DNA of 64,000 nt from Candidatus Parcubacteria bacterium (GTDB lineage: Bacteria > Patescibacteriota > Minisyncoccia > JACPXH01): assembly GCA_016196625.1 (NCBI GenBank), contig JACPXH010000024.1, positions 1,206-65,205 of the forward strand, read 5' to 3'. Below the pieces are notes generated by a model. It was not told where the DNA came from. It did not search any database and worked only from the letters and a program-made list of their open reading frames with translations. The translations under genes and the position numbers were made by a program. This document shows positions 130 to 32,072 of the stretch, one piece after another. Each line of letters begins with the position of its first letter. The first letter of the stretch is position 1.

Positions 130-1056
130 ATGCACCGAGCTGTTTTGCAGTTTTTTGTGCTTACCCTTGCGCTGGTAACTTTGGCATTTGCGGCCAAATA
201 CCAGACGGGAGCCGACGCCACTTGGACGGCGCAAAAAAACAATCGGTTTTTGCCAATTGCGGGCGAACGAGTGCCGGGCCAACCCCCAACGTCAAAAGAA
301 AACACCTCCCCGCTTGCGCCTGAACTTGAGTCAGCCCCGGCTCTGGTTAAGCTACCCGCGCCCGCGCAGCCCCAAAGCGCACTGCGCTTACTCGACGAGG
401 TACCAACCTTAGAACAGAGCCGCGCCCCAATGCCTGCTCCGGCCAAACCAGAGACAGTTACCAATGCCGATATTAGAGCCCGGATAGACCACCCTTCGTG
501 CAAGCTACCGCCCTACACCAAGGAGGTCGCCGAGGCTAACCTTGCCGCTGCAGGAAGTCTGGACTCGGCTGAGGCAAGTCGCGTCTGGGACACGTTTGAC
601 AAATTCTGTAAGCACGATTTTTCGCTCTTCTACGAACTCGAACAGTCTGACGACCGCGCCCGCGCGAACCCCGCGGCGACCACAACGCTGCCCACCGAAA
701 ACGAACTTGCAAACCTTACGCTTTCGCCAGAAGCGTTCCGGCGCGTAGAAGAACTCGTCCAGCGCATCTGGAACGAACAGGGGTATAACTCAAACTTCTT
801 GGGCGAGGGCATAACGCAGCCAAGCACGGATGCCCTGGGGGTTACCATCCCCACAGCCACGGCTCCACTCGGCATCCAGTGCGGCGACCGCACCATCTCG
901 CCTGAAGGACTCGGGCCGACTTGGTGGACCTGCAAATGCACCGGCTGTTGCATCCCGTGCAAACTCGGGTGCTGCCTGCCCAGTTGCGAACTTGGCTGCC
1001 GGCCGCGCGCGTACCTGTGGGATTCCATTACCGGCATCTGCGGGTGCGGCATATAG
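130..1056 (+). CDS. Secreted or membrane-anchored Pro-rich protein with an extremely Cys-rich C-terminal tail (about 14 Cys in the last 60 aa, e.g. CKCTGCCIPCKLGCCLPSCELGC). It is the first gene of the T4SS-like operon.
   Basis: ORF track; N-terminal hydrophobic segment; composition. Confidence 0.45.
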   Translation: MHRAVLQFFVLTLALVTLAFAAKYQTGADATWTAQKNNRFLPIAGERVPGQPPTSKENTSPLAPELESAPALVKLPAPAQPQSALRLLDEVPTLEQSRAPMPAPAKPETVTNADIRARIDHPSCKLPPYTKEVAEANLAAAGSLDSAEASRVWDTFDKFCKHDFSLFYELEQSDDRARANPAATTTLPTENELANLTLSPEAFRRVEELVQRIWNEQGYNSNFLGEGITQPSTDALGVTIPTATAPLGIQCGDRTISPEGLGPTWWTCKCTGCCIPCKLGCCLPSCELGCRPRAYLWDSITGICGCGI

Positions 1057-1066
1057 CCCCTAAGCT

Positions 1067-1957
1067 ATGCTCAGGAAACTCCTAACTCTCAATATTTTCA
1101 GCAAAATAGTAGCTGTTGCGGTCGCCGCGGCAGCGCTCTTTTGGCTTGTCCGCACTTTGCAACTTGTCCCAGCCAGGCCGTTTGGTGAACCCACCGCCCA
1201 GAATCCTACTCGGGCGGGGCCGCAAACCGCCCAGCTGTCAGCCGCAACCACACCCCTCGAAGTAACTTATAGTTTCGAGATAGATAGCGACGGAGATGGC
1301 CTCACAAATGCCAAGGAGTTTGTCTACGCGACCGACCCGCTCCGGGCAGATACGGACGGCGACGGCTACCCAGATGGCAACGAGGTAAATAACGGGTACG
1401 ACCCCACCCTGGCCGGTTCGGCCCGTTTGCCGGACGAGCCCGCCAACCTCACCCAGCGTTTTCTCAAGTGGGCGGGTAACCCGCCCTCGCTCGAACCCAG
1501 TCGCATCATCGCCTTCCTCGACAGCCAACTCGACCTCGGGTTTCGACTTCCGGACATTGCCACAAGCTCCGTCCGTATCGCACGACCAAGTAACGCCGCA
1601 GGGCTAAGGCAATATTTGGCGGCGGCGCGTGATCTGGCCTTGCCGGAAGAAACAGCTCCGTATAACGAGCTGGCGCACGAAGCGCTCTTGGGGCGCCTTG
1701 ACGGGGCCGAGGCGACGCTTCGGAAGCTCGAAGCCCTGTCCCAAGTCTGGCAGCAGCGCGAGGTGCCGCCGTCAGCCCAAGAGCTTCACCAAAATATCCT
1801 CGGCCTGCTGGCCCTCGGCCGCGAGCTCTTTGCTGACTTGCGACTCAGCCGTTCAGACCCGGTGCGCATCATCTGGAACATGGACCGCGGCAAGGCGCTC
1901 GCGGCCGTGGCTAAAAACATAGAAGTGCAGATTACTGGTTTAGAGAAACAACCGTGA
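1067..1957 (+). CDS. TM-anchored protein with thrombospondin type-3-like Ca-binding repeats (DSDGDGLTN...DTDGDGYPDGNE).
   Basis: ORF track; N-terminal TM helix; DxDGDG repeats. Confidence 0.45.
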   Translation: MLRKLLTLNIFSKIVAVAVAAAALFWLVRTLQLVPARPFGEPTAQNPTRAGPQTAQLSAATTPLEVTYSFEIDSDGDGLTNAKEFVYATDPLRADTDGDGYPDGNEVNNGYDPTLAGSARLPDEPANLTQRFLKWAGNPPSLEPSRIIAFLDSQLDLGFRLPDIATSSVRIARPSNAAGLRQYLAAARDLALPEETAPYNELAHEALLGRLDGAEATLRKLEALSQVWQQREVPPSAQELHQNILGLLALGRELFADLRLSRSDPVRIIWNMDRGKALAAVAKNIEVQITGLEKQP

Positions 1958-2637
1958 GACGGATGCTGCCACTGGTACTACTTGTCGTTCTGGCCGGCTT
2001 CTTCCTGGTACAGGGATACAGATCCAGCAAGTCGGTTGCCCCTGACCAAAACTCTCCGGCGTCAGAATCACCGCTGCGAAGCGATCTGGTGGCGACCGGA
2101 CAGGCGACGGACACGCCGGCTGCGTCAACTCCGGCTGATCAAACAGAAAACGCCGCCTTTACTGCTTGGCTTCAACAATTTAGCCAGAAACAAGAGGCTC
2201 AACGTGCAACCGAAACGCTCACTGCGGAAGAAAAACAGCGGCTCGTGGACTACCTCGTCGCTTCAGCCCGCATCGCCTGGCCTCAAGATCCGGTCGGGCT
2301 GCGTGAAGCGCTACTCGAGAATAAAGACGGTAAACCAGCAAAACTCGACGCGGTGATTCGGGGCTTTGAAGCCGGCACTACGGAACTCAAAAAACTCACG
2401 CCGCCCGAGCGTTTGGTCGCGGTGCATGCAGCCACGCTAAATCAACTCGCTGACTTAATCGGCGTCTATAAGGACCTGCGGGGCGGTGCCGGCAAGTCAA
2501 TTGCCGAAACCTGGCAAGGCCCCACCATGGCCGGGCTGCGAGAGCGTTCCGCTCAAACCCTGCAACAGATCCATGAGCTCGTCTCCCAGTACCAGCTGCA
2601 ACTCCCTGACGACGTCTTGCCCCCTTATGCGCTCTAG
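1954..2637 (+). CDS. Hypothetical secreted/TM-anchored protein. The GTG start overlaps the previous stop (GTGA).
   Basis: ORF track; N-terminal signal/TM segment. Confidence 0.4.
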   Translation: MRRMLPLVLLVVLAGFFLVQGYRSSKSVAPDQNSPASESPLRSDLVATGQATDTPAASTPADQTENAAFTAWLQQFSQKQEAQRATETLTAEEKQRLVDYLVASARIAWPQDPVGLREALLENKDGKPAKLDAVIRGFEAGTTELKKLTPPERLVAVHAATLNQLADLIGVYKDLRGGAGKSIAETWQGPTMAGLRERSAQTLQQIHELVSQYQLQLPDDVLPPYAL

Positions 2638-5116
2638 GAACACATTGAACCGCGGCGCGGCCGTGATACTAGTGGCGCTGATCATCGCCGTCATCGGCAC
2701 GCTGGGCGCTGCCGGCAGGGCTGAAGCCGCAGTGCCCACGGCGATTACCCACTTTGTGGCGAACACCAACTTCGAGCAGAGTCTCGAATCGTTCCTCACC
2801 TCATTCATCTCCACCTTTTTTGGCGCCCTGCAGCTGCGCAATGAGGACTTCCAGAAGACCCTTGAACTCGGCAAGATCGAAGCTGCGCGCGAAGACGTGA
2901 ATAAGCTCGTGTTCGACACTCTCCGTGAGCTCAAGGAAGGGGCCTTGGGCGGAGTGGTAATCGACGATCCGGCGCAGGCCCGATCGGTGCTCAAGGGGCT
3001 CGGCATCCAGGTTCCGCCCGACATACACTCCGCCAGCCTAACTTGTCCGGCCGGCGCGTTCATCGGCGGACAATGCGTCATGGTCAAACGCGAGGGACGC
3101 ATCATCACGAACGTTGACCATTACCTCTACGAAGAACCCCTGCAGAAAGCGCGCGACTACGTCAACTGCTACTACAACCTGCTCGAGTGGCGCCAAGCGA
3201 CAAACCAATTCGCCACCTACACGAAAATCCGGCTTGACCCCCAAAACCCAGCCCCGGCTGTTCGAGACAGTATTATCCACCTTGACCTCCAGAAGGCCAA
3301 TTTTCTCGCCTCGCTCCAGCGCTCGGAACGCGGCCTTATCAATGCGCCGCCGGTCTCGTGGTACCGCGGCGGAAAGGTCTCGGAAATCAACTGGGGGAGC
3401 ATCACGAACCACGCGGAATACGACAAACTCTACGCCGCACCCAAGTGCGATCTCATTTTGCGCAACATATCCTGCGCCGATGCGGCAGGCGGGTGCTTTC
3501 CGGTCTCGTATCTCTCCGACATTGTGCCCATAAACCCGTCTGAAGCGGCCAGCGACTACTACGATCCGGGCGCAGTCAATGAACTCGTCAACCCTGATTT
3601 CCCGGATGCGCGCACGAACCCGGCCGCGAGCGCCGAGTGGAGCTGGGATCTTGTGGAAAAATCTCGCAACCCGGTCAACACCTTGGGCGGACTCGAGCAA
3701 AAAGTGGCGGCCGCGGCAAAGCGCATCATTGCCGAAGCTGCGGAAGCGAATAAAGCGCAACTGGTCTCTGGCCAAGGCGTGCGCTCCCAGACGTATCTGG
3801 TCGGCTGGCCGGACCAATGGGCCGAGGCGGACAACCTGCGGGGCAAATATTATTTCGTGGACACCGGCAGCATCATCTCGCCGGCTTTCATCCTGCTCGA
3901 CAAAGTCAAGGCCGCGATCCAAGCCGAGTTTGATCTCGCTCAAAAAGCGTACAAGTACCCGCCGGAAGCAAACGTCCAAAGCACCCAATACCGGTTCATC
4001 GGCCAACAAGGGAGCGAGCGCAAAGACGACCTCACCATATCTTCGCTGAAGCCAGAGATCGACAAACTCCCCGCACCCTTCGAAGACTTCAGCAATTACC
4101 TGGCGCTCCCAGCTGATCTCTACGAACGACCCGGAACCTATGCCCAGGGGCCAAACCGACCGGATACGAAAACCAAAACTGCCAACACCAACTACCTCAA
4201 CAAACTTTTCAAAGACGTGCTGCAGCTGCACGAACGGTCTTGGAGCGACGTAATCGCAAGCTGGTTTGGCAGCGAGGCCGATTTCTTTGCCAGCCGATCC
4301 CGATCCGGAGCGCGGTTTTTCCGAAATCTCGGCGCGGTCCGTACAGCGCTTGATGCCAGTATCGGGCAGCTAGAGCCGGCGGTGGCAGAACTGGAGGGGA
4401 CTGCAAATACTCCGGATCGCATCCGACTCGCCCAAGCGGCTCGGGACTCTTTAAGCCGGCTTCAAGAAGCGCGGGACGGCCTCGAACACAACGACATGCC
4501 CGCCGCCACGATCTACGGCAAAATAGCCCAAGCAGATTTGAACCTTGGACTCGTCGCAGCCGGACTTGGCAGCAGCGCCAGCCAGGCTTCTGCTATCAAC
4601 CAGGCGCGTCAAACTATCGGCGCGGACTCGGCTGCCATCCAGCAAGCTCGTAACGCCGCCACCCGCGAACAAATCGACTACTCCCTTGCCACCATCAACC
4701 AGACCGCCGTGGTGGTCGGGCAGCTGCCGGGCGGCGGAGAAGCCGGCCGCGATCTCTCCCGAGCCGCAGCCACGCTCCGCGACGCTGACCGCCTAATCCA
4801 GCAGGGCGCCAATGTCGGCGATGCCCAAAACAACCTGCGCCAGCAAATTTCAACCAGCTTGAGCCTGCTTAGCAACAGCGCTGCAGTACTCAACCAAACA
4901 GGCGTGCAGACTCCCGGCGCTTACCAAGCAATCGGCCGGGTGCAAAGCACTATCTCGGCTGTCGATCGAGCCAACAGTTACCTCACCGATGCGACGCGCA
5001 TCCAAACGCTCATCGCGAGCGGCGATCCGCTTACGCTACTCACCGGCATAAGCCAAGGGCTCAACCTGTTTAATTCAGCTTCCAGCTTCTTCCAAAGTTT
5101 CTTCGGGGCTCCTTAA
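2627..5116 (+). CDS. Large (about 830 aa) secreted protein with signal peptide MRSRNTLNRGAAVILVALIIAV...AEAAVP. Start reassigned to the ATG at 2627, which overlaps the previous stop by 11 nt; the track ORF from 2486 is an upstream read-through. Possibly a T4SS-associated surface protein or adhesin.
   Basis: ORF track; signal peptide; no catalytic motif recognised. Confidence 0.5.
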   Translation: MRSRNTLNRGAAVILVALIIAVIGTLGAAGRAEAAVPTAITHFVANTNFEQSLESFLTSFISTFFGALQLRNEDFQKTLELGKIEAAREDVNKLVFDTLRELKEGALGGVVIDDPAQARSVLKGLGIQVPPDIHSASLTCPAGAFIGGQCVMVKREGRIITNVDHYLYEEPLQKARDYVNCYYNLLEWRQATNQFATYTKIRLDPQNPAPAVRDSIIHLDLQKANFLASLQRSERGLINAPPVSWYRGGKVSEINWGSITNHAEYDKLYAAPKCDLILRNISCADAAGGCFPVSYLSDIVPINPSEAASDYYDPGAVNELVNPDFPDARTNPAASAEWSWDLVEKSRNPVNTLGGLEQKVAAAAKRIIAEAAEANKAQLVSGQGVRSQTYLVGWPDQWAEADNLRGKYYFVDTGSIISPAFILLDKVKAAIQAEFDLAQKAYKYPPEANVQSTQYRFIGQQGSERKDDLTISSLKPEIDKLPAPFEDFSNYLALPADLYERPGTYAQGPNRPDTKTKTANTNYLNKLFKDVLQLHERSWSDVIASWFGSEADFFASRSRSGARFFRNLGAVRTALDASIGQLEPAVAELEGTANTPDRIRLAQAARDSLSRLQEARDGLEHNDMPAATIYGKIAQADLNLGLVAAGLGSSASQASAINQARQTIGADSAAIQQARNAATREQIDYSLATINQTAVVVGQLPGGGEAGRDLSRAAATLRDADRLIQQGANVGDAQNNLRQQISTSLSLLSNSAAVLNQTGVQTPGAYQAIGRVQSTISAVDRANSYLTDATRIQTLIASGDPLTLLTGISQGLNLFNSASSFFQSFFGAP

Positions 5117-5119
5117 GGC

Positions 5120-6688
5120 ATGAAGCGCCTGTCCAACCAAACAAAATACACAGTCCTCGTCGGCGCTCTGACCGCCGCAACGCTCCTGTGGCCGGCGAGC
5201 GCTTTTGCCCAAAGCTGGTGGGAGAACCTTTTGGATTTCGGCGCTGGAGCACTGACCGCGGTCCCAAGCGCTATACTCTTGGGAACGCTTGACATCATCT
5301 CGGGCATCCTCCATGTCATCTTGCGGGTGGCAGCGGCCCTGCTCAATTACGTCGCCAGCGGCGCCTTCCTCGCCCACCCGGTCACGCAATACCCCATTGT
5401 GCAGATTGGCTGGCGCATCACGCGAGACTTGGCCAATATGGCCTTCGTTCTTATTCTGCTGTGGCTCGCCATCACCACCATTTTGCGCCTTGAACAGTAC
5501 GGTAAAAAAGAGCTTATCATCCGGCTCGTCGTAATAGCGCTCATCATCAACTTCAGTCTGGTTATCGGCGGGGTACTCATTGACGTCTCAAACCGAGTGA
5601 TGCTGCTTTTCCTCGATCCGCTCACCAAAGGCGGCAAAGACGGAGCTGCGGTTATTCTAACCGGCAGCAACCTAATCAAGTCCTTCGGCGACAACCCGAT
5701 CAGCTTCTTTCGAACGAGCCAGCAGCTCGCGACCATTGTGCAAGCGGTCTTTGAACTCTTCTTTACAGTCGTCATGACCGGAGCCCTCCTTGTGATTGGG
5801 GCGCTTATGGTCGTAAGGGTTGTGTACTTCTGGTACCTGCTTATTTTGGCGCCGATCGCGTGGTTGTCGTGGGCGTTTCCGACGATCGGAGAAGTGGGGG
5901 GCGAGGCAGGCTACAAACGATGGTGGGACACGTTCGTGCAGTGGCTGTGGTGGGGGCCGACGGCTGCGTTCTGGCTACTCATTGCGGCCATCGCCGCGCA
6001 AACCCTTCACAAGCTGCCCAATCAATACGCCGCCTTCACCGCGGCCAGCCAAAGCAACGCGCTCGCTAAAATCCCGAGTGCCATGCTCACCACCTTGGCC
6101 CCGCTCCTGCAATACACCATTGTGGTGTTTTTCCTGTTCCGGGCCATCGCCGCGATGAAAAAGGGTGCGGGCGAGCATGTCAGCGGATATGTGGGCAAGG
6201 CCATGACGAAGATGACCGGCGATTATCTGCGCAAGCCAGCGCTTGCCGCCTGGCGCGCCACCGGCGTCCCGGGCGGAGTCAAACAAAGGTGGGAACAAAT
6301 AAAGAAGGGTGGTCTTAGAGTGGGCGGAGTCCAACTCTACGGGGGCGCCCAGGCCAGAGAGTTACGTGAGGCTCGTGTTGCCCAGTTCTTCGGTAAGAGA
6401 GGGGCGGCCACACGCCTTGAAGCTTCCCGCCGCGCCCAAGACATCAAGGATCTCCAAGAGGGCCGCATGGCTGCCCTCACCAGCCCCGAACTCTCGGCCC
6501 TACTACCCCCGATCCCGCCCGCAGGCGGCGCACTCCCCACCGTAACCGAAGACATGGCCGCAGCCGCAAAAGAGCTGCTCACGCGCCGGGAACACTTTGA
6601 ACGCATCCGCTCAACGCTCGGCCAAGCTCAAGAACACGCCGAATACGAGCACCTACGCAACGTTGTTCGCCGCTACGTGAACCCGTAA
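5120..6688 (+). CDS. Polytopic membrane protein with signal peptide, more than 6 TM helices and a charged cytoplasmic tail. VirB6/TrbL-like T4SS channel component (inferred).
   Basis: Hydrophobicity pattern and position immediately upstream of the VirB3/VirB4-like genes. Confidence 0.4.
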   Translation: MKRLSNQTKYTVLVGALTAATLLWPASAFAQSWWENLLDFGAGALTAVPSAILLGTLDIISGILHVILRVAAALLNYVASGAFLAHPVTQYPIVQIGWRITRDLANMAFVLILLWLAITTILRLEQYGKKELIIRLVVIALIINFSLVIGGVLIDVSNRVMLLFLDPLTKGGKDGAAVILTGSNLIKSFGDNPISFFRTSQQLATIVQAVFELFFTVVMTGALLVIGALMVVRVVYFWYLLILAPIAWLSWAFPTIGEVGGEAGYKRWWDTFVQWLWWGPTAAFWLLIAAIAAQTLHKLPNQYAAFTAASQSNALAKIPSAMLTTLAPLLQYTIVVFFLFRAIAAMKKGAGEHVSGYVGKAMTKMTGDYLRKPALAAWRATGVPGGVKQRWEQIKKGGLRVGGVQLYGGAQARELREARVAQFFGKRGAATRLEASRRAQDIKDLQEGRMAALTSPELSALLPPIPPAGGALPTVTEDMAAAAKELLTRREHFERIRSTLGQAQEHAEYEHLRNVVRRYVNP

Positions 6689-6691
6689 CCC

Positions 6692-7102
6692 ATGCCACCC
6701 ACCGATCTGGCAGAACTCGATTACGTAAGTGAAATGATTCACCCACACCTCGCATTCCCGCACAGCACTCGGGCGGAAGAAGTGGCGCTCGCCAAACGCA
6801 TCCATCAAAAATCGCGGGGCGAGATTTTGCTGCTCTCACCAACGGCTTTTGACGTCCCCGCCGTGGTGGCGGGGCTCACCGCAGAGCACATTGAGACGGT
6901 GATGAGGCTGGGGGCGCTTAGCCAAAAAAGGTTCCTCGGCACGGCTTTTGATGTCCCGGAAAACGCAGCCCGTATTGAAGCCATCACCCAAGCTCTGGCC
7001 GAGGAACTCAAGGCGGGTCCCGGGGACGTAAGTCGTCAGCTCCAGCGCTTGCGCTGGTATATTAACGACCACCGCACACTGTTCAGCAAAGAAAGTGCGT
7101 AA
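6692..7102 (+). CDS. Hypothetical cytoplasmic protein (136 aa) within the T4SS-like operon.
   Basis: ORF track; 4-nt coupling with neighbouring genes. Confidence 0.35.
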   Translation: MPPTDLAELDYVSEMIHPHLAFPHSTRAEEVALAKRIHQKSRGEILLLSPTAFDVPAVVAGLTAEHIETVMRLGALSQKRFLGTAFDVPENAARIEAITQALAEELKAGPGDVSRQLQRLRWYINDHRTLFSKESA

Positions 7103-7553
7103 GCAGACGACCATGCCGCCTCCAACTATAACTTCCGAGGACATCGCCCAGCTCAAAGCGCAACTCCAGCAAGACTGGCAGCGGTGGATGGCTGGCCAGC
7201 AGCGCTTCCCGGAACGCCTCCAGCGTCTGGCGCTCCTGCTGCTCAATCAACTCTTGAGCTTCCAGACCACCGATGAACTCACCAACATCGCCCGGGACCT
7301 CAATCTCTCGGCTGAAGTCCGCGGCCGGTTGGGAGAACTCATGTGGCAGTACGCCATCTACCGAGACAACACCGAGGCAAATCTGCCGACCGTGGCCCAA
7401 AAACTGGGCACAGATGGCCCGGTCGCCCGGCGCGTACTCGAAGAAATCAAACGCCGCATTTTTCGAGAATTCTCCCCACAACCCCAGCTCAGCGGTAACG
7501 TGGTGAACCTCAAGGGTTCGCCACAGACCCCGCCCAGCGATTACAATAGATAG
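7095..7553 (+). CDS. Hypothetical cytoplasmic protein (152 aa) within the T4SS-like operon.
   Basis: ORF track; overlaps the previous gene by 8 nt. Confidence 0.35.
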   Translation: MRKQTTMPPPTITSEDIAQLKAQLQQDWQRWMAGQQRFPERLQRLALLLLNQLLSFQTTDELTNIARDLNLSAEVRGRLGELMWQYAIYRDNTEANLPTVAQKLGTDGPVARRVLEEIKRRIFREFSPQPQLSGNVVNLKGSPQTPPSDYNR

Positions 7554-7564
7554 TAGACAGTAGC

Positions 7565-7951
7565 ATGCAATTCCAGGTTCCTCAATTCATTGACGTGGAA
7601 GATCGGGTGGTGGGTCCCCTCACCTGGCGGCAGTTTGTGTACGTGGCGGGTGCCGGCGGGATTCTCTTCCTGCTCTGGCTTATTTTGGAGGTCGCCGTCT
7701 GGGTCATCGCCGCCGTGCTCATTGGCGGGTTTGCTCTGGTTGCGGCCTTCCTCAAGGTCAATGGTCGGCCGTTCCTGTTGTTCCTAGCTTCAGTGTTCGG
7801 ATTTGCGGCGAAACCCCGACGCTACATCTGGCGGCCGCATGCGCCCAACGCCAGCCCGGCCGACGCATCAGCGCCGCGGGGATCGGCCCCGCTTTCGAAA
7901 ATCCGGGAACTGGCTTGGTCGCTCACGGCGAAAAAGGACCAGCCACGATGA
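7565..7951 (+). CDS. Small two-TM membrane protein, PrgI/VirB3-like (inferred).
   Basis: 128 aa; two hydrophobic helices (GILFLLWLILEVAVWVIAAVLIGGF, LLFLASVFGFAA); sits directly upstream of the VirB4-like gene, as in Gram-positive T4SS operons. Confidence 0.35.
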   Translation: MQFQVPQFIDVEDRVVGPLTWRQFVYVAGAGGILFLLWLILEVAVWVIAAVLIGGFALVAAFLKVNGRPFLLFLASVFGFAAKPRRYIWRPHAPNASPADASAPRGSAPLSKIRELAWSLTAKKDQPR

Positions 7952-8062
7952 AAGTCCAAATGACAAATCCAAGGCTCAAGGCTCAAGGCTCAACGTTCAA
8001 AACGATTTGGCCTTTGGATTTTGAACTTGATTTGAAATTTGAGCTTTGAGTTTTGAGCTTCG
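7952..8062. repeat. Heptamer-array palindromic repeat, copy A. Left half is tandem NNCAAAN units (GTCCAAA TGACAAA TCCAAGG CTCAAGG ...TTCAAAA); right half is the inverted complement (TTTTGAA CTTGATT TGAAATT TGAGCTT).
   Basis: Read directly; related copies at 37953-38075, 40535-40607 and 55098-55170. Confidence 0.6.
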
Positions 8063-8071
8063 TCCTATCCT

Positions 8072-8731
8072 ATGCCCGCATCCAACCTCCCCGCCACCCA
8101 ATCCTTCCTCGCCTTTGAGTCCATCCACGACGACGTGGTGGCGATGAAAGACGGGTCGCTTAGAGCCATCCTCATGGCTTCCTCCATGAACTTCGAGCTC
8201 AAGTCCACCGAAGAACAAGACGCCATCGTCTATGCTTACCAAGACTTCCTTAACTCGCTCGATTTCCCCATCCAGTTCGTCGTCCACTCTCGTCGGCTCG
8301 ACATCGAGGAGTACTTGGAGGGCATCCGGGCCCTCGAGAAAGACCAGCCCAACGAACTCTTGCGCCTGCAGACAAGCGAATACGTCAACTTCGTCAAAGG
8401 TTTTGTGGAGCTCGCGAACATCATGTCAAAGACCTTCTACGTCGTGCTGCCGTTCGTGCCGGTCGAGCGCACCAAGGCCTCGTGGAGCGACCGGATGCTG
8501 GCGGCGTTTAGACCGCGGGCGGCTCTCAAAGCGGCTGGCCGCTTTGAAGAATACCGCAATCAGCTCTGGCAGCGGGTGGAACACGTTGCGTCCGGGCTAA
8601 GTCGCTTTGGGGTACGCGCAGTCGCGCTCACCACCGAAGAACTCGAGGAGTTGTTCTACGCGCTCTACCGGCCCGGCGAAGCAGCAAAAGCCGGGCTGGA
8701 GGCACTAAAGCAGCTTGAGTTCAAAACATAA
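8072..8731 (+). CDS. VirB4 N-terminal (CagE/TrbE/VirB-like) domain fragment, 219 aa. It is probably the N-terminal part of a split or frameshifted VirB4.
   Basis: Motif ...VVAMKDGSLRAILMASSMNFELKSTEEQDAIVYAYQDFLNSL... resembles VirB4/TrbE N-termini. The downstream ORF is open in another frame from 8709, so a single frameshift within 8709-8731 would fuse the two. Confidence 0.45.
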   Translation: MPASNLPATQSFLAFESIHDDVVAMKDGSLRAILMASSMNFELKSTEEQDAIVYAYQDFLNSLDFPIQFVVHSRRLDIEEYLEGIRALEKDQPNELLRLQTSEYVNFVKGFVELANIMSKTFYVVLPFVPVERTKASWSDRMLAAFRPRAALKAAGRFEEYRNQLWQRVEHVASGLSRFGVRAVALTTEELEELFYALYRPGEAAKAGLEALKQLEFKT

Positions 8732-8738
8732 ATCAGCC

Positions 8739-10517
8739 ATGGCTTTGCGCTTCTTCCAATCAAGCCAAAACACAAAACCGCCGGCGAGTCCGACCGGACT
8801 AGCCGACCTGATCGCGCCCAGCGCCGTTGAAATCTCCGCTGATCACGTCAAGATCGGCGATCGGCTCGCGCGCACCATCTTTGCTTTTACCTACCCTCGC
8901 TACCTCGGCACCAACTGGTTCAGCCCCGTCATCAATCTTGACCGGATCTTCGACATCTCGGTCTCAATCAGTCCGGTGGACACGGGCACCATCCTAAAGC
9001 GGTTGCGCAAAAAAGTAGCCGAGGTGGAATCAACCATCTCCATGCGCCAGGAAAAGGGCTTGGTGCGAGATCCGTTGCTTGAAACCGCCTACCAGGACCT
9101 GGAGGATCTGCGCGACAAACTCCAGCAGGCCCGCGAACGGCTGTTCGCCGTGGGGCTGTACATTACTATCTACGGTCCGGACGAAAAAACGCTCGACGAC
9201 GCCGAGGCGCAGATCCGGGGACTATTGGAAACTCGGCTCGTCTACGCGCGCCCAGCCACTTTCCAGCAAGAGTTGGGGTTCAGCACCACGCTGCCGCTCA
9301 ACAACGATACGCTGCGGGTTGCCACCAACCTCAACTCTTCACCCCTCTCTACTATCTTCCCGTTCGTGTCCTCGGAGCTGACCTCGGATCGCGGCATCAT
9401 GTACGGCATCAACCGGCACAACAACTCCCTCATCCTCTTTGATCGTTTTTCCTTGGAGAATGCGAATTCGGTAGTCTTTGCCAAATCCGGCGGCGGCAAA
9501 AGCTACCTCGCCAAGCTCGAAATCCTGCGCTCCATGATGCTGGGGACCGATGTTATCGTGCTGGACCCTGAAAACGAATACCACTACCTGGCCGAAGCCG
9601 TAGGCGGAAGTTTCGTTAAAATTTCTCTGGCTTCCCGAAACCACATCAACCCCTTTGACCTGCCCCTGCCGGCAGAGGGGGAATCGCCCGAAGAGGTGTT
9701 CCGGGCGCACGTGGTCGAACTCGTGGGGCTCATCCGCATCATGCTGGGCGGGCTCACCCCGGAGGAAGACGCCATCATGGACCGCGCTATAGCGCAAACC
9801 TATGCGTCGCGCGACATCACGCCCGGCTCGAATTCTTCGAAGGCCGCCCCGCCCACGCTGAGCGACCTGCAGACGATTCTTGAAAACACCGCCGGCGCCC
9901 AGCAACTCGCAACGCGACTTTCTAAATACACCTCGGGCAGCTACGCGGGCTTCCTAAACCAGCCCACCAACATTGCCATCACCAGTCAGCTCGTCGTCTT
10001 CAACGTCCGCGACATGGAGGAGGAACTCCGCCCGATTGCGATGTACGTCGTGCTCCACCACATTTGGAACGTCATCCGACGCGAACTCAAAAAGCGCATC
10101 CTCATCGTGGATGAAGCGTGGTGGCTCATGAAAACCGCAGACGGCGCCTCGTTCCTGTTCTCAATTGCCAAGCGCGCGCGCAAGTACTACTTGGGGCTCA
10201 CCACCATCACGCAAGACGTCGCCGACTTTATGAAATCAACTTACGGCGAACCCATCGTTACCAACTCCTCTTTGCAAATCCTTTTGAAGCAGTCGCCAGC
10301 GACCATTGAAACCGTGGCTAGAACTTTCAGCCTGACGGACGAAGAAAAATTCCTGCTCTTAGAAGCCAACGTGGGGGAGGGCATCTTCTTTGCGGGCTTG
10401 AAACGCGCGGCGATCAAGATAGTCGCTTCCTACTCTGAAGATCAAATCATCACCTCTGATCCGGAACAATTGATTGCGATCGAGCAGGCCAAAAAAGAAC
10501 TCTCCGCTACTGCTTAA
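8739..10517 (+). CDS. VirB4/TraC-family T4SS ATPase (C-terminal part or a complete Gram-positive-type VirB4).
   Basis: Walker A VVFAKSGGGKSYLAK; Walker B ILIVDEAWWLM; N-terminal IAPSAVEISADHVKIGDRLARTIFAFTYPRYL typical of the VirB4 family. The track ORF starts at TTG 8715; the ATG at 8739 is preferred. Confidence 0.65.
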   Translation: MALRFFQSSQNTKPPASPTGLADLIAPSAVEISADHVKIGDRLARTIFAFTYPRYLGTNWFSPVINLDRIFDISVSISPVDTGTILKRLRKKVAEVESTISMRQEKGLVRDPLLETAYQDLEDLRDKLQQARERLFAVGLYITIYGPDEKTLDDAEAQIRGLLETRLVYARPATFQQELGFSTTLPLNNDTLRVATNLNSSPLSTIFPFVSSELTSDRGIMYGINRHNNSLILFDRFSLENANSVVFAKSGGGKSYLAKLEILRSMMLGTDVIVLDPENEYHYLAEAVGGSFVKISLASRNHINPFDLPLPAEGESPEEVFRAHVVELVGLIRIMLGGLTPEEDAIMDRAIAQTYASRDITPGSNSSKAAPPTLSDLQTILENTAGAQQLATRLSKYTSGSYAGFLNQPTNIAITSQLVVFNVRDMEEELRPIAMYVVLHHIWNVIRRELKKRILIVDEAWWLMKTADGASFLFSIAKRARKYYLGLTTITQDVADFMKSTYGEPIVTNSSLQILLKQSPATIETVARTFSLTDEEKFLLLEANVGEGIFFAGLKRAAIKIVASYSEDQIITSDPEQLIAIEQAKKELSATA

Positions 10518-10520
10518 CTC

Positions 10521-10982
10521 ATGCCCGCCGTTGCCGCGCCAGTTCAAAATGAAGCCCCGGCCGCACCCGAACGCTCCCGGGCCGAGGCCTTCTTGGCCCG
10601 CAAGCGCGCCGCGCTGCCTGCGGCCTCCGCTCCACGCAAGCCAGAGCCTTCGATCGGCTTGGGCGAATTCATGTTGATGCTTTTTTTCGCTGCTTTTTTC
10701 GATCTGGTCTCCCTGGTGCCGTGGCTGAACCTAGTCACGGTCTTTCTGGGCAACGTAACTTTTGGCGCCTGGTTTTGGTTTAAGGGGCTCTCGTTTAAAA
10801 AACTGCGTCTCGCCTTCGCGCTCGAAAGCATCATTGAACTCGTCCCATTTTTGAGCATATTGCCGGGCTTCCTCGGCCTCGTTATTACGGCTTACGTTGT
10901 CCAGCGCGCCGGCCGCTTAATCGGCCAGCTGCCCGGAGGGCAGCTGGCTGCTCGGGCCCTTGAAGGACGGAGGACAATTTAA
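10521..10982 (+). CDS. Small membrane protein (3 predicted TM helices) within the T4SS-like operon.
   Basis: ORF track; hydrophobic helices. Confidence 0.35.
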   Translation: MPAVAAPVQNEAPAAPERSRAEAFLARKRAALPAASAPRKPEPSIGLGEFMLMLFFAAFFDLVSLVPWLNLVTVFLGNVTFGAWFWFKGLSFKKLRLAFALESIIELVPFLSILPGFLGLVITAYVVQRAGRLIGQLPGGQLAARALEGRRTI

Positions 10983-11833
10983 TGCCCCGACCCTTCGCCG
11001 TCGCCATCGTTTCGCTTGCGCTCGCGTTTGTGGTGTCGCTGGCGCTGGGCGGGCCGCGACTCCTCGCCCAAGACCTGCGCGAGAACGAGCCCCTCTCCCA
11101 GCTGCCTGTGCCAGAGCCCGGCGGTGGCGTAGTCACGCCCGGCATTGGCATCGCGAACTTCGTGCGCTACGTGTATCTCTTCGGCATCAGCTTCGTGGCC
11201 GTGGCCGCAGCGGTGTCCATAATGTACGGCGGGGCAAGGTATATGTTTTCGGCAATCCCCGGCGTCAAAGAGGATGCCAAAGACCGCATAACCAACGCCG
11301 GAATCGGGCTTGCCTTGGCGCTGGGCGCTTTCATTATCTTACGCACCATAAACCCGGATCTTGTATCCTTCAAACCCATCGAGGGAGACTTTCTGCATCT
11401 TGAAGAACCGGCCCAGCCCGGCAGCGGCCGGATCGTGATCCAGCCGGGGGATGCGTGCAGCCTCGCGGGTCCAAACCTGTGCGCTGCCGGTTCAACCTGC
11501 AGACCAGACTTCCTACCGGGCTCCGCCACCGTCCGACCAGACTCCACCACCGGCGCCACCTGTCAAACAGACAGCACGCCGCAGGTTCTCGGCAACGGCC
11601 AAGACTGCTCGCGCAACCCCAATGCCTGCGGGCCAAACCTGCAATGCACGAACGTCTCGGGTCATCTGGTGTGCACTCCGATACCGCCAGCGGCCGGCGT
11701 GCCTGAAAACGACGTCTGCGAAACCGATGTCTTCCGAGGTCAAGGCAACTGCGGCATTGGCTCCAACGGCCGGCCGCTCACGTGCGTAACCCAAAACGCC
11801 GCTACGCGCCGCGGCACCTGCCGGGCCTTCTAG
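10982..11833 (+). CDS. VirB2/TrbC-like pilin-fold protein (signal peptide plus two-helix hairpin GISFVAVAAAVSIMYGGARYMFS...GIGLALALGAFIILRTI) with a 170-aa Cys-rich, Thr/Pro-rich C-terminal extension (about 16 Cys).
   Basis: Hydrophobic hairpin resembling conjugative pilins; the ATG shares an A with the previous TAA; the stop shares a CTAG with the convergent gene. Confidence 0.4.
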   Translation: MPRPFAVAIVSLALAFVVSLALGGPRLLAQDLRENEPLSQLPVPEPGGGVVTPGIGIANFVRYVYLFGISFVAVAAAVSIMYGGARYMFSAIPGVKEDAKDRITNAGIGLALALGAFIILRTINPDLVSFKPIEGDFLHLEEPAQPGSGRIVIQPGDACSLAGPNLCAAGSTCRPDFLPGSATVRPDSTTGATCQTDSTPQVLGNGQDCSRNPNACGPNLQCTNVSGHLVCTPIPPAAGVPENDVCETDVFRGQGNCGIGSNGRPLTCVTQNAATRRGTCRAF

Positions 11834-13041
11834 GGCGCTGCGACGAGCAACGCCACAAGCACCCACCAGACCGTAGCGAGGTCTGCCCGCCACAAAGTGG
11901 TGTCCACCAAGCCGTGGAGGAGTGGGACCATGAGGGTAAGGGCCACTGCACCGGCAAAGGGTGACTTTTTGGTTTGGCGAAAACGCCGCCACAGCACAAC
12001 AAAGAGCCACACAAGTCCGGCTAACCCCATAAGCCCGGCACTCAACCACGCGGTGAAGAACAGGCTGTGAGGATGCGGCACTGCCCACTCGGGATACGGT
12101 GGATGTTTAGGCTGGTTTTGCAAGTACGCGGTCTCAAACGTCCCGGGCCCGATTCCTAAAAACGCGTGGCTAAACCCAATCTCAAGGGCAACCTGCCAGA
12201 TGACGCGCCGGGAGGCGAATGGCGGCTGGAAAACGGCGTATAAGAAGGCCCCCAAGACGAGCGCGGCCAAAACAACTGCGAGTACGCGCTTTCTTATTGT
12301 GGCTTTGCGGCCAAACCAGAGGACACCCGCACCAACCGCAAGACTTGCTCCCATGGCACCCAGAGATCGGGTGAGTAGCAAGGGCAAAACCATGATCGCC
12401 CCGGCCCAGCGGCTAACCGTCTGCCACTCGTGGGCAATGGCGGCGCGACTAATTGCAAAAGCGAGCACTGTAAGCGGGGCCAAGTACATGGCCAAAAAAT
12501 TAGGCGAGCCGTACCACGCGGTCAAGCGATTGTCGTAAGCAAGGTCGCCGGAAACAATGTACCCAATCGCCCCCACCGCCGCGAACACTCCGCCGCCGAT
12601 AAGACCGGCGAGGACGTGAGCTTTCTTTGCGGTGCCTCGCTCCATGGCAAGCCAAAGCACGAAACCCAAGAGCAACGGAACCAAAAACCAACTCTTGAGA
12701 ATGCCGAGTCCGGTGCGGTAAGCGCCTGAACGCAAAATCCCAAGCGCAAGCCCGGTGATAAGCAGTGCTATGGGCCACGCCAAAAATCGCAACTTCTGCC
12801 AAGCCAGGGTCCACGTCGAACGCTGGGCGAAGAGTGGCAGCGCCCGCGCGAACAAAATGAGGCTCATGAGTTCGGGCACACTCACCGGCACGGGACCGAC
12901 TGGAAAACGGATGTGCCAAAGCGGGATAAGAGTGAGCGCTACGCCGACGGCGGCGGCAAACCGCCACCACGCCAAAACCGCAAACCCGACGCCAACGAGT
13001 GCGAGGAGCAAAAAACCAGAAATGGTCTCTACCAAAATCAT
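11830..13041 (-). CDS. O-antigen ligase/Wzy-like polytopic membrane protein.
   Basis: Multi-TM protein; GIGPGTFE and HPHSLFF motifs typical of the Wzy_C family. Start set at MILVETISG (13041), overlapping the upstream gene by 4 nt. Confidence 0.5.
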   Translation of the reverse strand: MILVETISGFLLLALVGVGFAVLAWWRFAAAVGVALTLIPLWHIRFPVGPVPVSVPELMSLILFARALPLFAQRSTWTLAWQKLRFLAWPIALLITGLALGILRSGAYRTGLGILKSWFLVPLLLGFVLWLAMERGTAKKAHVLAGLIGGGVFAAVGAIGYIVSGDLAYDNRLTAWYGSPNFLAMYLAPLTVLAFAISRAAIAHEWQTVSRWAGAIMVLPLLLTRSLGAMGASLAVGAGVLWFGRKATIRKRVLAVVLAALVLGAFLYAVFQPPFASRRVIWQVALEIGFSHAFLGIGPGTFETAYLQNQPKHPPYPEWAVPHPHSLFFTAWLSAGLMGLAGLVWLFVVLWRRFRQTKKSPFAGAVALTLMVPLLHGLVDTTLWRADLATVWWVLVALLVAAP

Positions 13042-14384
13042 GTTTGTTGTTTGCGGGCGGCTGCCGCGGCATAGCCGAGCACCGCAGCCACAAGGGGCAC
13101 GACCACGGGCGAAAACATCATAATATCGAAGAAGCTCAAGACTGCAAATCCGATTAAACTCGCAAGCCCGGCCATGGCGCTGGGCGCGGGGCTCGCTCGA
13201 CCCAACGCGAAAAACGCTCCCCCCAGCAGCGCCAGCCAAAGCCCAAGCCCCACCACCCCTGTTTCCGCTGCCAATTCAAGATAGGTGTTATGCGTAGATA
13301 CCGGTGTCCGATAGGTGAAATCGCCCTCGGACCGAACCAGGAGCGGATAGTTCCCCAGCCCCACGCCCAGGGGATGCGTGACCGCCGTTGCAAAACCTGT
13401 GCGCCACGCCACCAGACGTTCCGCGTTGGAGCCTTCGCCCAAGTCTACTGCCACCAGAGTCCGCTCGCCCACGAACGGCACGGCGAACGTAAGGGCGGCT
13501 GTCGCGGAAAAAATCAGCACGAACTTGCGCCCAAGACGGCAGGCAGCCACAAACCCGGCAGCAGCCAAACCGGCGTAAGCTGAACGACTAAAAGTGAGGG
13601 CAATGATTCCCACTGCCAGCACCATCGACGCAAACCAAGCGGCTTTCTGGCGGGGCCGGACCGCACTCTGCCAGACTACGGCCATGAACGGCAGGGCTAC
13701 CACCAGGACAGCGCCCAAGGTGTGGGGGTCGGGCAGCGTGCCTACGGCGCGAAGCACATCTCTGCCGCCAACGTGCACAAACCAGCTTGAAAATGACTGC
13801 ACAGTTTCGGCCACGGTTGCGCCAGCGAACAGTGGGGTTACGCGGGCGAGCCAAAAGGCCGCACTACCCAGCCAACCTATGAGTGCTGCGCCAGCGGCAA
13901 GTACTCCTGCGCCGGCAATCGCTCGCACGAACGCGCGCTCGGCGCCCTCGCCCTCGCGCAACCACCAATATACCGCAAACGCAAGTGGCCAAAGCGTAGC
14001 CCACACGAACGCCTTGCGCACCGCCCAAACAGCTGATCCTCCGGCCCAGAGCGCGGAGAGCGCTCCCCACACCACGGCGAGTCCAAGCCAAAAAAGAAGC
14101 TGGTTCGGGCGACTTTTCCGCGGCCACAAAAGCACCGTCGCCGGAATCCAAAGGCGGCTTACGGCCACGTCAAAACCGGGCCACGGGTTGAGGGCTGGGG
14201 TAATCGGCAACAACAAGATCCCCGCCGCCAACACCCATCCGGCTCGAGTCCGCATGCCCAGAACCGTCGCGGTGAGTCCGGCTGCAACGACTGCAGCCAC
14301 CGGCGCCAGGGCCGCGCCCACGCCCACGGCCAGAGCTGCGGGCAAAGCGAACAGATACCTCACGCCAAGAAGTGTTTCGGTCAT
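13038..14384 (-). CDS. O-antigen ligase family (Wzy_C) membrane protein.
   Basis: FSRSAYAGL, GVGLGNY and HNTYLELAAETGVVG motifs. Confidence 0.55.
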   Translation of the reverse strand: MTETLLGVRYLFALPAALAVGVGAALAPVAAVVAAGLTATVLGMRTRAGWVLAAGILLLPITPALNPWPGFDVAVSRLWIPATVLLWPRKSRPNQLLFWLGLAVVWGALSALWAGGSAVWAVRKAFVWATLWPLAFAVYWWLREGEGAERAFVRAIAGAGVLAAGAALIGWLGSAAFWLARVTPLFAGATVAETVQSFSSWFVHVGGRDVLRAVGTLPDPHTLGAVLVVALPFMAVVWQSAVRPRQKAAWFASMVLAVGIIALTFSRSAYAGLAAAGFVAACRLGRKFVLIFSATAALTFAVPFVGERTLVAVDLGEGSNAERLVAWRTGFATAVTHPLGVGLGNYPLLVRSEGDFTYRTPVSTHNTYLELAAETGVVGLGLWLALLGGAFFALGRASPAPSAMAGLASLIGFAVLSFFDIMMFSPVVVPLVAAVLGYAAAAARKQQT

Positions 14385-15853
14385 GGCGAGACGGGCGGCG
14401 CTGGCACACCAGCCGGCACCGCGGACGACCTACGGCCCAACCGGAAAAGCTCCAGCTCGGCCGGCCCAATGGCACCGGAGGCCCAGGTTGAGAGCAGATA
14501 GCTTGTTGTACCCAGCGCCACGAGCGCGGCGAGCCCGAGCGGGCGCGCGGCCGCGAGCACCAAGGCCAACACCGCCACGGCAGGCAGGCTTCTAGCAAAT
14601 CGCTTAAGCGAAAGCCGCACCTTGGCGCCCTGAAACACGATGCGGGCCAGGAAGACCGTCACCACAATCTCGGTCGCCACCGTGCCCCAGGCGGTGCCGA
14701 AGTACGAATAGCGGGGAATGAGCGCTAAATCCACTACAAGCATAGTGACGAGCCCCGCGAGATACGCCGAGAGCGCGCTCTTTTGACGCCCCAGCACCAC
14801 GACTGCGCTCCCAAAAAGATTACCGAAGAAAATGAGGGCGACCGCCACTCCCAGCACCGCCATGACCCCACCCGAGGCTCTAAAGTCCGGCCCGCCGAGT
14901 AACAAAGCAATTTTGTCGGCCACGAAAACAAGCCCCACCACAATGGGCACACCCGCAACGAAAAACAAATCAAAGATTTGTTGGAGCAGGGCCCGGAAAG
15001 CCCCTCGACTTTCACTTAAACGTTGCGCCAGGCGGGGCAGCATCAGGCCCATAAACATAGCCGGGAAGAAAATAAAATGCTCAAGCACGCTGTAGGCAAG
15101 TCCGTAGATGGCGACGTCGTAAGATGGCTTAAAAAATCCAAGCAGGAGCGCGTCGCCCTTAAAGTAGACCAGGGTGAGACCAATGGAGATTGCCATGGGC
15201 CAAGATTCGACCAGAGAACGCTTGAGCCACCCGGCAGACGTGCGTCCGGTCGGAACAACGAAGAGCCGCACCGCGAAGCGCAGAATAAAAAACTGCACTA
15301 GCCCCGAGAGCGCGAGCCCGGCGAGGACGCCCGCGAGTCCGGAGCGACGCGCGGCCAGAAGAATAACGCCCAAGAAACACAGCTTCCCCGCAACTTCTGC
15401 CACCCCCACCCAAAACATCGCCAGGTACTTCTGGAACACGGCCGACAGAATCTGCGAGAGCGAGTTGAACGCGAAAAAGAAGCTCGCGATGACGAGCCCC
15501 GAACGGACCGCGCTTGAAAACGGGAGTACCAAACTCGCGGCCACCCCAAGCCCAAACACGCCCCCGAGCGCTGCGGCCCGCAGCCAGAAGTAGGCTCGCA
15601 CCAGCGCTGCCTCGTCGGCTCCGGGTCGCGCGATATCTCGAGCGAGCAAAGAATATAAGCCCCAGTCGGCGCAGGCGTGCAAGATCGTCCCGTACGCAAT
15701 CACCAAACTCCACTCTCCAAACGTATTTGCCCCGAGCACGCGCGTGAGCACCCCGATAATCAAAACAGAGAGGGCGGCGCTCACAACGCGGCTTAAGACC
15801 AGAAACGCAGCGTTGAGCCCCACGGTCTGGGCGAGTTGCCGCACTGCAACCAT
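14381..15853 (-). CDS. Wzx-type polysaccharide/oligosaccharide flippase (polysaccharide biosynthesis protein family).
   Basis: 490 aa, about 14 TM helices; N-terminal pattern typical of Wzx/MOP flippases. Confidence 0.55.
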   Translation of the reverse strand: MVAVRQLAQTVGLNAAFLVLSRVVSAALSVLIIGVLTRVLGANTFGEWSLVIAYGTILHACADWGLYSLLARDIARPGADEAALVRAYFWLRAAALGGVFGLGVAASLVLPFSSAVRSGLVIASFFFAFNSLSQILSAVFQKYLAMFWVGVAEVAGKLCFLGVILLAARRSGLAGVLAGLALSGLVQFFILRFAVRLFVVPTGRTSAGWLKRSLVESWPMAISIGLTLVYFKGDALLLGFFKPSYDVAIYGLAYSVLEHFIFFPAMFMGLMLPRLAQRLSESRGAFRALLQQIFDLFFVAGVPIVVGLVFVADKIALLLGGPDFRASGGVMAVLGVAVALIFFGNLFGSAVVVLGRQKSALSAYLAGLVTMLVVDLALIPRYSYFGTAWGTVATEIVVTVFLARIVFQGAKVRLSLKRFARSLPAVAVLALVLAAARPLGLAALVALGTTSYLLSTWASGAIGPAELELFRLGRRSSAVPAGVPAPPVSP

Positions 15854-32037: not shown

Positions 32038-32072
32038 ACTAGATTCCGCGCTTCGCAAGGCGGCATGCCCGA

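Follow-up and report, generated by a model that had tools for sequence, protein, structure and literature searches.

In a survey of 3,035 genomes, Quinonero-Coronel et al. (2025; PMC12102498) described a monophyletic clade of Patescibacteria VirB4 proteins nested in MPF-FATA, with TrsD, PrgI, VirB6, and VirB2-like pilins encoded near virB4 and few relaxases, and in Paceibacteria they noted the proximity of these type IV secretion systems (T4SSs) to dnaA, dnaN, rnpA, rpmH, and ksgA. Wang et al. (2023; PMC10633639) reported a Saccharimonadia T4SS with pilins, without relaxase or coupling protein, that is essential for epibiotic growth, and Southlakia requires both its T4SS and the pilins (PMC10633639; PMC12857230). 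A 2025 review places the Patescibacteria systems in the T4SS superfamily as its latest additions (PMC12857230), their role has been described as completely unknown (PMC11665869), and tubular structures that are possibly T4SS pili have been reported between a cultivated relative and its host (bioRxiv 10.64898/2026.06.21.733656). Here, we describe a 12-gene operon at positions 130-11833 of a 64,000-nucleotide stretch of contig JACPXH010000024.1 from the metagenome-assembled genome of a Candidatus Parcubacteria bacterium (class Paceibacteria); by the window we mean this whole 64-kb stretch. We conclude that the operon probably encodes a chromosomal, origin-proximal T4SS of the Patescibacteria lineage, derived from MPF-FATA, whose job would be contact-dependent transfer of macromolecules between epibiont and host and not conjugation.

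Twelve co-directional open reading frames (ORFs) on the + strand, which we number 1-12 in operon order, span 130-11833 in our ORF listing, with junctions of -11 to +11 nucleotides (nt) at every boundary except one, a 120-nt gap running from 7951 to 8072. Codon-by-codon comparison of 10 of the 12 genes with the closest available relative, GCA_016186565.1 (loci L087 and L088), gave ratios of nonsynonymous to synonymous substitution (dN/dS) of 0.08-0.36 (0.08 for genes 9 and 10, and 0.15-0.36 across genes 1-8), and the ten compared genes are therefore real genes under purifying selection. Compared with a further relative (locus L001), the ATPase module is 83% identical and the remaining genes are 42-62% identical. 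The original prediction for this DNA, made from the letters and a list of ORFs, had described just such a run of twelve mostly overlapping genes, and each of them lies where it was placed. The eleven protein kinds that it named also held up, among them a two-transmembrane (TM) PrgI/VirB3-like protein, a VirB4-family ATPase with Walker A and B motifs, a VirB6/TrbL-like protein, a VirB2/TrbC-like pilin, thrombospondin type 3 (TSP3) repeats, several secreted or anchored proteins, a membrane-spanning gene 11 product, and Cys-rich tails; the twelfth, encoded at 8072-8731, it left unnamed, and this gene turned out to specify a TrsD-like, separately encoded VirB4 N-terminus.

Gene 10 (8739-10517, 592 amino acids [aa]) belongs by score to the NCBIfam CD1110 family of VirB4 ATPases (369.6 bits against a cut-off of 325), with further matches to the Mbov_0397, TraC-F, and VirB4_CagE models but CD1110 as the top family, and it matches the VirB4 C-terminal domain 4ag5 in the PDB at 1.6e-43. 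Its Walker A motif (AKSGGGKS) lies at nt 9480-9503 and its Walker B motif (ILIVDE) at nt 10098-10115; NCBI annotates the start at the ATG at 8739, with an alternative TTG at 8715. At least 8000 database relatives exist, and among the 120 matches listed those with names are Patescibacteria at 65-90% identity, while the best matches outside the phylum come from Bacillota and Actinomycetota plasmids at 29-38%.

Directly ahead of it, gene 9 (8072-8731, 219 aa) encodes a TrsD/TraC-like protein equivalent to the VirB4 N-terminal domain. Its match to NCBIfam TrsD (NF041427) is weak (1.8e-6, 27.9 bits against a cut-off of 200), models of the VirB4 N-terminus also match it, with E values of 1.8e-6 or higher across all these models, and PF26593 TraC-like is present in its homologues. 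On the CD1110 VirB4 model gene 9 covers positions 2-118 and gene 10 covers 187-728, and when the two family hidden Markov models (HMMs) were run on a full-length 783-aa VirB4 from a C. perfringens plasmid, the first fell on residues 35-194 and the second on residues 204-755. Genes 9 and 10 thus tile one full-length VirB4, and the protein is therefore encoded in two pieces. With dN/dS values of 0.08 and 0.085, respectively, these are the most constrained genes of the operon. A PDB profile search with the gene 9 family also returned histone H2B matches, which we took as chance.

The remaining core components surround this pair. Gene 8 (7565-7951, 128 aa) encodes a PrgI/VirB3-like protein that scores 41.7 bits on PF12666, above the cut-off of 27, and has two TM segments, one at aa 33-51 and the other at aa 56-74; a PDB profile search with the PrgI family gave nothing meaningful. 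Gene 5 (5120-6688, 522 aa) encodes a polytopic membrane protein with a signal-peptide-like N-terminus, about seven hydrophobic segments by hydropathy, and a hydrophilic C-terminal third. Seven of 36 members of its family match PF04610 TrbL/VirB6 (best 5.9e-9), one matches TrbL_4, and the Azambacteria homologue matches TrbL_3; in the PDB, the family profile matches TrwI (VirB6 of R388) best, although the E value of 0.007 is marginal. The gene 5 product may thus be called VirB6-like, with the support coming through its family and not from its own score.

Gene 12 (10982-11833, 283 aa) would supply the pilin. Its product begins with a signal-peptide-like leader; two hydrophobic helices (aa 63-81 and 102-128) follow and end in TINPD, and a C-terminal extension of 157 aa has its 12 Cys in three groups of four. 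In its family, 35 of 36 members match PF18895 (T4SS_pilin) and seven match TrbC/VirB2 (PF04956); gene 12 also has a weak match to the Mbov_0395 pilin-like family, and a PDB profile search with the pilin family gave nothing meaningful. As for gene 5, the family and not the protein's own score supports its assignment as a VirB2-like pilin. The Cys-rich extension is typical of the family and not peculiar to this window: 55 of 62 members carry at least 40 residues past TINPD, and 45 of those have at least 4 Cys.

The location of the operon is conserved too. In four relatives the order runs from ksgA through exported proteins, the VirB6-like protein, small proteins, PrgI, TrsD, VirB4, an approximately 150-aa protein, and the pilin to R3H-yidC-rnpA-rpmH and dnaA-dnaN, with ksgA upstream and rnpA and rpmH downstream seen in those relatives. 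The window has the same order, with yidC (16818-17609), dnaA (18590-19960), and dnaN (20151-21266) lying 5-9 kb downstream of the operon, and the position is constant in species whose VirB4 is only 62-68% identical to gene 10. Cumulative GC skew reaches its minimum at about 20-22 kb and the skew switches from negative before about 22 kb to positive after it, which fits an origin beside dnaA/dnaN; the + strand operon would therefore be transcribed toward the origin, on the lagging strand and head-on with replication, an orientation kept in relatives. The GC content of the operon is uniform with its flanks, and the rest of the window is ordinary chromosome with housekeeping neighbors.

Parts expected of a conjugation module are missing. 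Pfam found no relaxase, MobC, VirD4, soluble lytic transglycosylase (SLT), or integrase in 44 ORFs of the window, and phmmer searches with the Clostridium plasmid relaxase, MobC, VirD4, and SLT proteins matched none of its six-frame ORFs. The 12 operon proteins include no SLT, CHAP, M23, or lysozyme match that would mark a peptidoglycan hydrolase, and no Pfam or NCBIfam match to VirB7, VirB9, or VirB10. A search against a phage collection gave no match, and no mobile-element gene was found in the 64 kb. The original prediction had held that neither a VirD4 coupling protein nor a relaxase lies in the window, and that the locus is a minimal, Gram-positive-type, nonconjugative apparatus of ultrasmall bacteria; the first statement is borne out by both searches, and the second agrees with the published Patescibacteria T4SSs (PMC12102498; PMC10633639). 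It had also suggested a check of synteny against Patescibacteria T4SS-like loci, and we recovered synteny both as the shared layout in the four relatives and as a core gene order across a larger set.

That larger set came from 507 VirB4 relatives, one genome per species, of which the best 80 loci were examined; they include loci of Azam-, Sung-, Giovannoni-, Niyogi-, Terry-, Ryan-, Portnoy-, Yanofsky-, Nomura-, and Adlerbacteria. Families were counted by iterated HMM searches with the twelve window proteins in the ORFs of 84 loci, some of them cut by contig ends. Gene 10 has a match in all 84 loci, genes 9 and 8 in 80 each, gene 12 in 74, gene 7 in 71 (after HMM iteration), gene 5 in 63, gene 11 in 51, and gene 2 in 48, against only four each for genes 3 and 4 and two each for genes 1 and 6, which are specific to the window's lineage. 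The commonest order, on a single strand, is 2-5-7-8-9-10-11-12; 30 of the 84 loci have it complete, and most of the rest have a subset. We thus found an eight-gene core in fixed order, including three families (genes 2, 7, and 11) with no Pfam or PDB match beyond the TSP3 repeats of gene 2.

Gene 2 (1067-1957, 296 aa), the first core gene, encodes an N-terminally anchored protein whose C-terminal domain is helical. It has two bacterial TSP3 repeats (TSP3_bac, PF18884), scoring 37 bits where the cut-off is 25; these calcium-binding repeats (DxDxDGxxDxxE) occupy aa 73-84 and 95-106. Homology within its family is full-length, and in the 48 loci that have it the gene always stands upstream of the VirB6-like gene. 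Gene 7 (7095-7553, 152 aa; 146 aa from the NCBI start at 7113) encodes a cytoplasmic protein with a helical domain. Members of its family, whose genes lie immediately ahead of prgI, are made up of an N-terminal helical domain of about 105 aa, a disordered Pro/Lys-rich linker, and a near-C-terminal motif that reads DPYRE or DPYKE in 39 of 73 family members and SDYNR here. Profile searches with this family found no Pfam or PDB match; an AlphaFold2 model of gene 7 built with four homologues was all helical at a mean predicted local distance difference test (pLDDT) score of 62.6, and Foldseek with this low-confidence model found no fold match in the PDB (best E 0.4). We also considered genes 6 and 7 as a split version of the longer gene 7 homologues and rejected this reading: only gene 7 matches them, by way of the N-terminal domain. 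Gene 11 (10521-10982, 153 aa), whose family lies directly downstream of virB4, encodes a small membrane protein with 2-3 TM segments by hydropathy, and its family has no Pfam, NCBIfam, or PDB match.

The lineage-specific genes mostly encode exported products, and hydropathy places N-terminal hydrophobic leaders on the products of genes 1-5 and 12. The exported product of gene 1 (130-1056, 308 aa; dN/dS 0.28) starts with a signal-peptide-like segment, has a Pro-rich region, and contains 14 Cys, 13 of them within the last 58 aa; it has no Pfam or NCBIfam match. These last residues form a module of about 60 aa with 13 Cys (window 880-1056; PLGIQCG ... AYLWDSITGxCGCG), which we call the CGCG-tail. 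A full HMMER search of 1.84 billion representative proteins returned nine relatives of gene 1, which have only the tail module in common. In a motif-based scan of metagenome contigs, all five loci with the module (L089-L093) adjoin a Paceibacteria T4SS operon, beside a gene 2 homologue, and in two of them (L092 and L093) an HExxH-containing domain follows it.

Gene 3 (1954-2637, 227 aa) encodes an N-terminally anchored protein; the gene 2 family HMM matches it at E 5e-7 and hhalign gives a probability of 65%, so it appears to be a remote paralogue of the gene 2 helical domain. This was the only link that hhalign detected among all family pairs. Gene 4 (2627-5116, 829 aa) encodes a large, mostly helical exported protein with 6 Cys, with 12 homologues among 5.8 billion proteins and a dN/dS of 0.17. 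Structure prediction and fold search, which the original prediction had named as a route to this protein, were run and led nowhere: the AlphaFold2 model made with the 12 homologues has a mean pLDDT of 49, too poor for inference, and Foldseek with this low-confidence model gave no PDB match at E <= 1e-3, the best (0.015) being to generic helical bundles. Gene 6 (6692-7102, 136 aa) encodes a small protein with no clear TM segment, sub-threshold Pfam matches only, and a dN/dS of 0.15 with saturated dS.

Only three operon proteins contain Cys, all of them exported, and each has an even number: 14 in that of gene 1, 6 in that of gene 4, and 12 in that of gene 12, the first and the last of these having Cys-rich tails. 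The nine other operon proteins, 2425 aa in all, have none where about 13 would be expected at the 0.54% of 18 other window proteins.

Other Paceibacteria operons carry three further genes that are absent from the window: one of about 514 aa (U02) between genes 2 and 5, one of about 335 aa (U00) between gene 11 and the pilin, and one of about 395 aa (U01) past the pilin, the last with weak PD40 beta-propeller matches. They occur in most Paceibacteria operons, namely L002, L004, and more than 60 others (for example, in L002 at 12266-13312, 13839-14936, and 4351-5907), and none has a significant Pfam or NCBIfam match. Because it is without these three genes and has the lineage-specific genes 1, 3, 4, and 6, we regard the window's lineage as a variant. 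Gene 4 stands at the same position as U02 does in other operons, and hhalign detected no relation between the two.

From these components a working scheme can be proposed. As suggested by the R388 and pKM101 structures, VirB6 would form a platform in the single membrane, to which PrgI and TrsD would attach the hexamer of VirB4. VirB4 would then pull the Sec-inserted pilin (gene 12) from the membrane and polymerize it into a wall-crossing fiber or conduit, as in F and T pilus assembly, and each pilin subunit would display its disulfide-rich C-terminal extension on the fiber surface. The anchored and exported products of genes 1-4 may form the extracellular, fast-evolving part that contacts the host cell; the exposed proteins (genes 1-4 and the pilin) are 42-52% identical to those of locus L001, compared with 83% for the ATPase. 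Both effector export and import of host macromolecules have been discussed for Patescibacteria T4SSs (PMC10633639; PMC11665869; PMC12857230; bioRxiv 10.64898/2026.06.21.733656).

Several observations weigh against this reading of the locus. Its function is assigned by homology, and the predicted membership of gene 10 in the Patescibacteria VirB4 clade comes by similarity. Gene 5 itself has no direct Pfam match, and gene 12 scores 19.9 bits on PF18895, below the cut-off of 26.6. The pilin is also not always linked, because in the closest relative (L087, GCA_016186565.1; VirB4 90% identical) an asparagine synthase gene (6389-7474) directly after virB4 replaces genes 11 and 12 at their position, either through rearrangement or through an assembly join. 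No VirB1-like part was recognized: phmmer with the Clostridium plasmid SLT and the Pontibacillus endopeptidase gave no match in the window. Nor does any operon protein match a VirB8-like (PrgL/TcpC) protein in sequence; the products of genes 2 and 3 are bitopic but appear mainly helical by family consensus, and the models of genes 4 and 7 are too low in confidence (pLDDT 49 and 63) to reveal VirB8 or VirB1 folds. Finally, VirD4 homologues lie far from virB4 in many Patescibacteria genomes (PMC12102498), and a coupling protein or relaxase could lie outside the 64-kb window.

The alternative that survives best keeps the apparatus and turns the traffic around, so that the system would take in nucleic acids or other macromolecules of the host as food for a cell unable to make nucleotides. 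Helicobacter takes up DNA through the ComB T4SS, and the absence of a coupling protein and a relaxase from the locus fits uptake. Apart from ComB and Ced, every T4SS precedent that we know of is an exporter, which counts against an importer, as does the lack of ComB-like outer components and of a nuclease in the operon; the sequence itself gives no sign of direction. In favor of import, the idea has been raised in the literature on the ground that competence is dispensable in Southlakia while the T4SS is essential (PMC11665869), and a preprint of 2026 connects a relative in culture with feeding on RNA of its host and shows possible T4SS pili (bioRxiv 10.64898/2026.06.21.733656). On balance, we think import unlikely, though it deserves to be kept in view.

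A Cys-rich-decorated VirB2 pilus could instead serve purely as an adhesive fiber, tethering the cell to its host and transporting nothing. The pilin extension and the products of genes 1-4 do resemble surface or adhesion modules in their TSP3 repeats, disulfide-rich tails, and fast divergence. The window, however, encodes a separate type IV pilus system, marked by a PilB-type T2SSE ATPase (35110-36771, - strand), and this is the usual adhesion and motility organelle of the phylum (PMC12857230); a dN/dS of 0.08 for VirB4 and TrsD fits an active motor, although pilus assembly also needs one. We find a tether without transport rather improbable.

There is very little room for a conjugative element, or the decayed remnant of an integrative and conjugative element (ICE) or plasmid, integrated in the chromosome. 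VirB4, PrgI, and VirB6 are homologous to MPF-FATA conjugation proteins, and the best matches outside the Patescibacteria are on plasmids. Against this stand the failure to find a relaxase, MobC, VirD4, integrase, or replication gene of an element anywhere in the 64 kb, when a canonical C. perfringens plasmid locus holds all the missing parts; the fixed position between ksgA and dnaA across species with VirB4 only 62-68% identical; and purifying selection on all compared genes together with GC content uniform with the flanks. That genes 9 and 10 are a virB4 frameshifted and inactivated by sequencing error or pseudogenization is next to impossible: they do lie in different frames, 7 nt apart, and jointly tile a full-length VirB4, but the split is kept in 80 of 84 related loci, which rules out a frameshift, and recurs on a Bacillota megaplasmid (Pontibacillus), the ATPase homologues among the matches listed (of at least 8000) are themselves about 580-625 aa, both halves have dN/dS of about 0.08, and TrsD is already a described family (PMC12102498).

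One further idea can be put forward tentatively, as a possibility that falls short of an even chance. The Paceibacteria may have a distinct, pilus-forming subtype of monoderm T4SS, with three extra conserved subunits (the gene 2, 7, and 11 families), a disulfide-rich extension on every subunit of the fiber, and host specificity set by lineage-variable exported proteins, including those with the CGCG-tail.

Two noncoding features accompany the operon. At its 5' boundary (69-129, + strand), as read from the sequence, a perfect GC-rich hairpin (69-94) lies past the end of the upstream gene and a TATAAT hexamer (116-121) stands 8 nt ahead of the gene 1 ATG; it is possible that the operon has its own promoter, with a very short leader or none. 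A consensus promoter and terminator scan did not call the TATAAT site and performed no better than on shuffled sequence. The sole sizeable intergenic gap, between prgI (gene 8) and trsD (gene 9), is filled by a long imperfect hairpin (7947-8064, + strand) whose stem pairs CAAGGCT repeats with TTGAGCT repeats; its folding energy is -41.7 kcal/mol (z -4.46), and none of 200 shuffles was equally stable. The closest relative, L087, has a comparable hairpin (z -3.15) with a different inner sequence, and locus L001 has no counterpart. Rfam and tRNA scans of the 64-kb window gave no match.

Between the operon and yidC-dnaA, the - strand carries two Wzy_C (O-antigen ligase-like) genes and a polysaccharide flippase gene (11830-15853). 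This stretch has a strong AT skew of 0.33-0.37, and a similar pair is present in L001 and none in Azambacteria. Elsewhere the window encodes a class A penicillin-binding protein, tyrosyl-tRNA synthetase, FabH, YebC, RuvB, PilB, PolA, Fpg, holA, and RuvA, as well as FemAB, a Mur ligase, RtcB, an RNase J-like enzyme, and a permease. Near the PilB gene, in a - strand stretch at 30631-37943, lie the gene for a lamin-tail-domain protein (30631-32151) and an unassigned 372-aa ORF (36825-37943). The uvrB gene (47922-51605, - strand; 1227 aa in total) harbors an intein with LAGLIDADG homing-endonuclease and helix-turn-helix domains.

The Patescibacteria T4SS, whose gene cluster lies close to the replication origin in most of these ultrasmall bacteria, is essential in the sole species tested and is a leading candidate for the means by which ultrasmall bacteria exploit their hosts. 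The window adds no new kind of system to this picture, being a clean Paceibacteria example, and the leads it offers are the eight-gene core with three families unmatched in Pfam and the PDB, the Cys-rich extensions that most pilins of such operons carry, from which a decorated pilus is predicted, and a rare Cys-rich module as a marker of exported proteins associated with the T4SS. The main text of the genome survey mentions neither thrombospondin, TSP3, nor an extension and names cysteine only for VirB1 hydrolases (PMC12102498); the TSP3 protein and the Cys-rich pilin extension are therefore not described there. In the same paper, including part of its supplement, we found no description of the gene 7 and gene 11 families or of the CGCG-tail module. 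The core families, the pilin extensions, and the Cys-rich module are all testable in the few cultivated Paceibacteria and Saccharimonadia.

Set beside known systems, the locus has its nearest inspected relative outside the phylum on a megaplasmid of Pontibacillus sp. ALD_SL1 (NZ_CP062975.1, 351801-361354; L085), a free-living member of the Bacillota. The two share the split core, the Pontibacillus locus encoding two VirB2-type pilin-like proteins, a 779-aa VirB6-like protein, PrgI, a 274-aa TrsD-like protein, and a 621-aa VirB4 (36% identity), and the window's family HMMs match every one of these core proteins at E values of 1e-14 to 1e-154. The annotation shows neither a relaxase nor a VirD4 for 9 kb to each side, nor any relaxase in the 19.7-kb stretch inspected, and flagellar genes adjoin. 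It differs in its short upstream pilins, in a 1050-aa peptidoglycan endopeptidase gene after virB4, and in having no homologue of genes 2, 7, or 11. VirB2-type pilins in monoderm T4SSs are therefore not confined to the Patescibacteria. With this comparison we group the NCBI Mbov_0395/0397 ICE families of Mycoplasma.

The conjugative MPF-FATA modules (CTn2/CD1110 type and pCF10 Prg/Pcf) share with the window a monoderm architecture and a PrgI gene directly upstream of a CD1110-family VirB4. The VirB4 of the C. perfringens plasmid NZ_CP143494.1 is 31% identical to gene 10 over 90% of the query; that plasmid also has MobC, a relaxase, VirD4 (CD1115 family), a full-length 783-aa VirB4, and an SLT transglycosylase, none of which the window has, whereas the window splits VirB4 and adds a VirB2-type pilin. 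Gene 9 resembles pGO1 TrsD (NF041427) in being a small protein homologous to the VirB4 N-terminal region and encoded beside the ATPase (PMC12102498).

The closest agreement is with the Patescibacteria-clade T4SSs, such as that of Southlakia epibionticum (SEML1_0006-0019; PMC12102498; PMC10633639). Shared with these are VirB4 with an adjacent TrsD, PrgI/VirB3, VirB6, and a VirB2-like pilin; a locus without relaxase or coupling protein; a monoderm set without VirB7, VirB9, and VirB10; and a position near dnaA, dnaN, rnpA, rpmH, and ksgA. The window differs in having no downstream peptidase or lysozyme genes and in its single pilin gene with a long Cys-rich extension, where Saccharimonadia have an array of 2-11 short pilins. 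This kind of system is thus already known from work of 2023-2025, and the locus described here is an ordinary new copy of it with modest lineage-specific variation.

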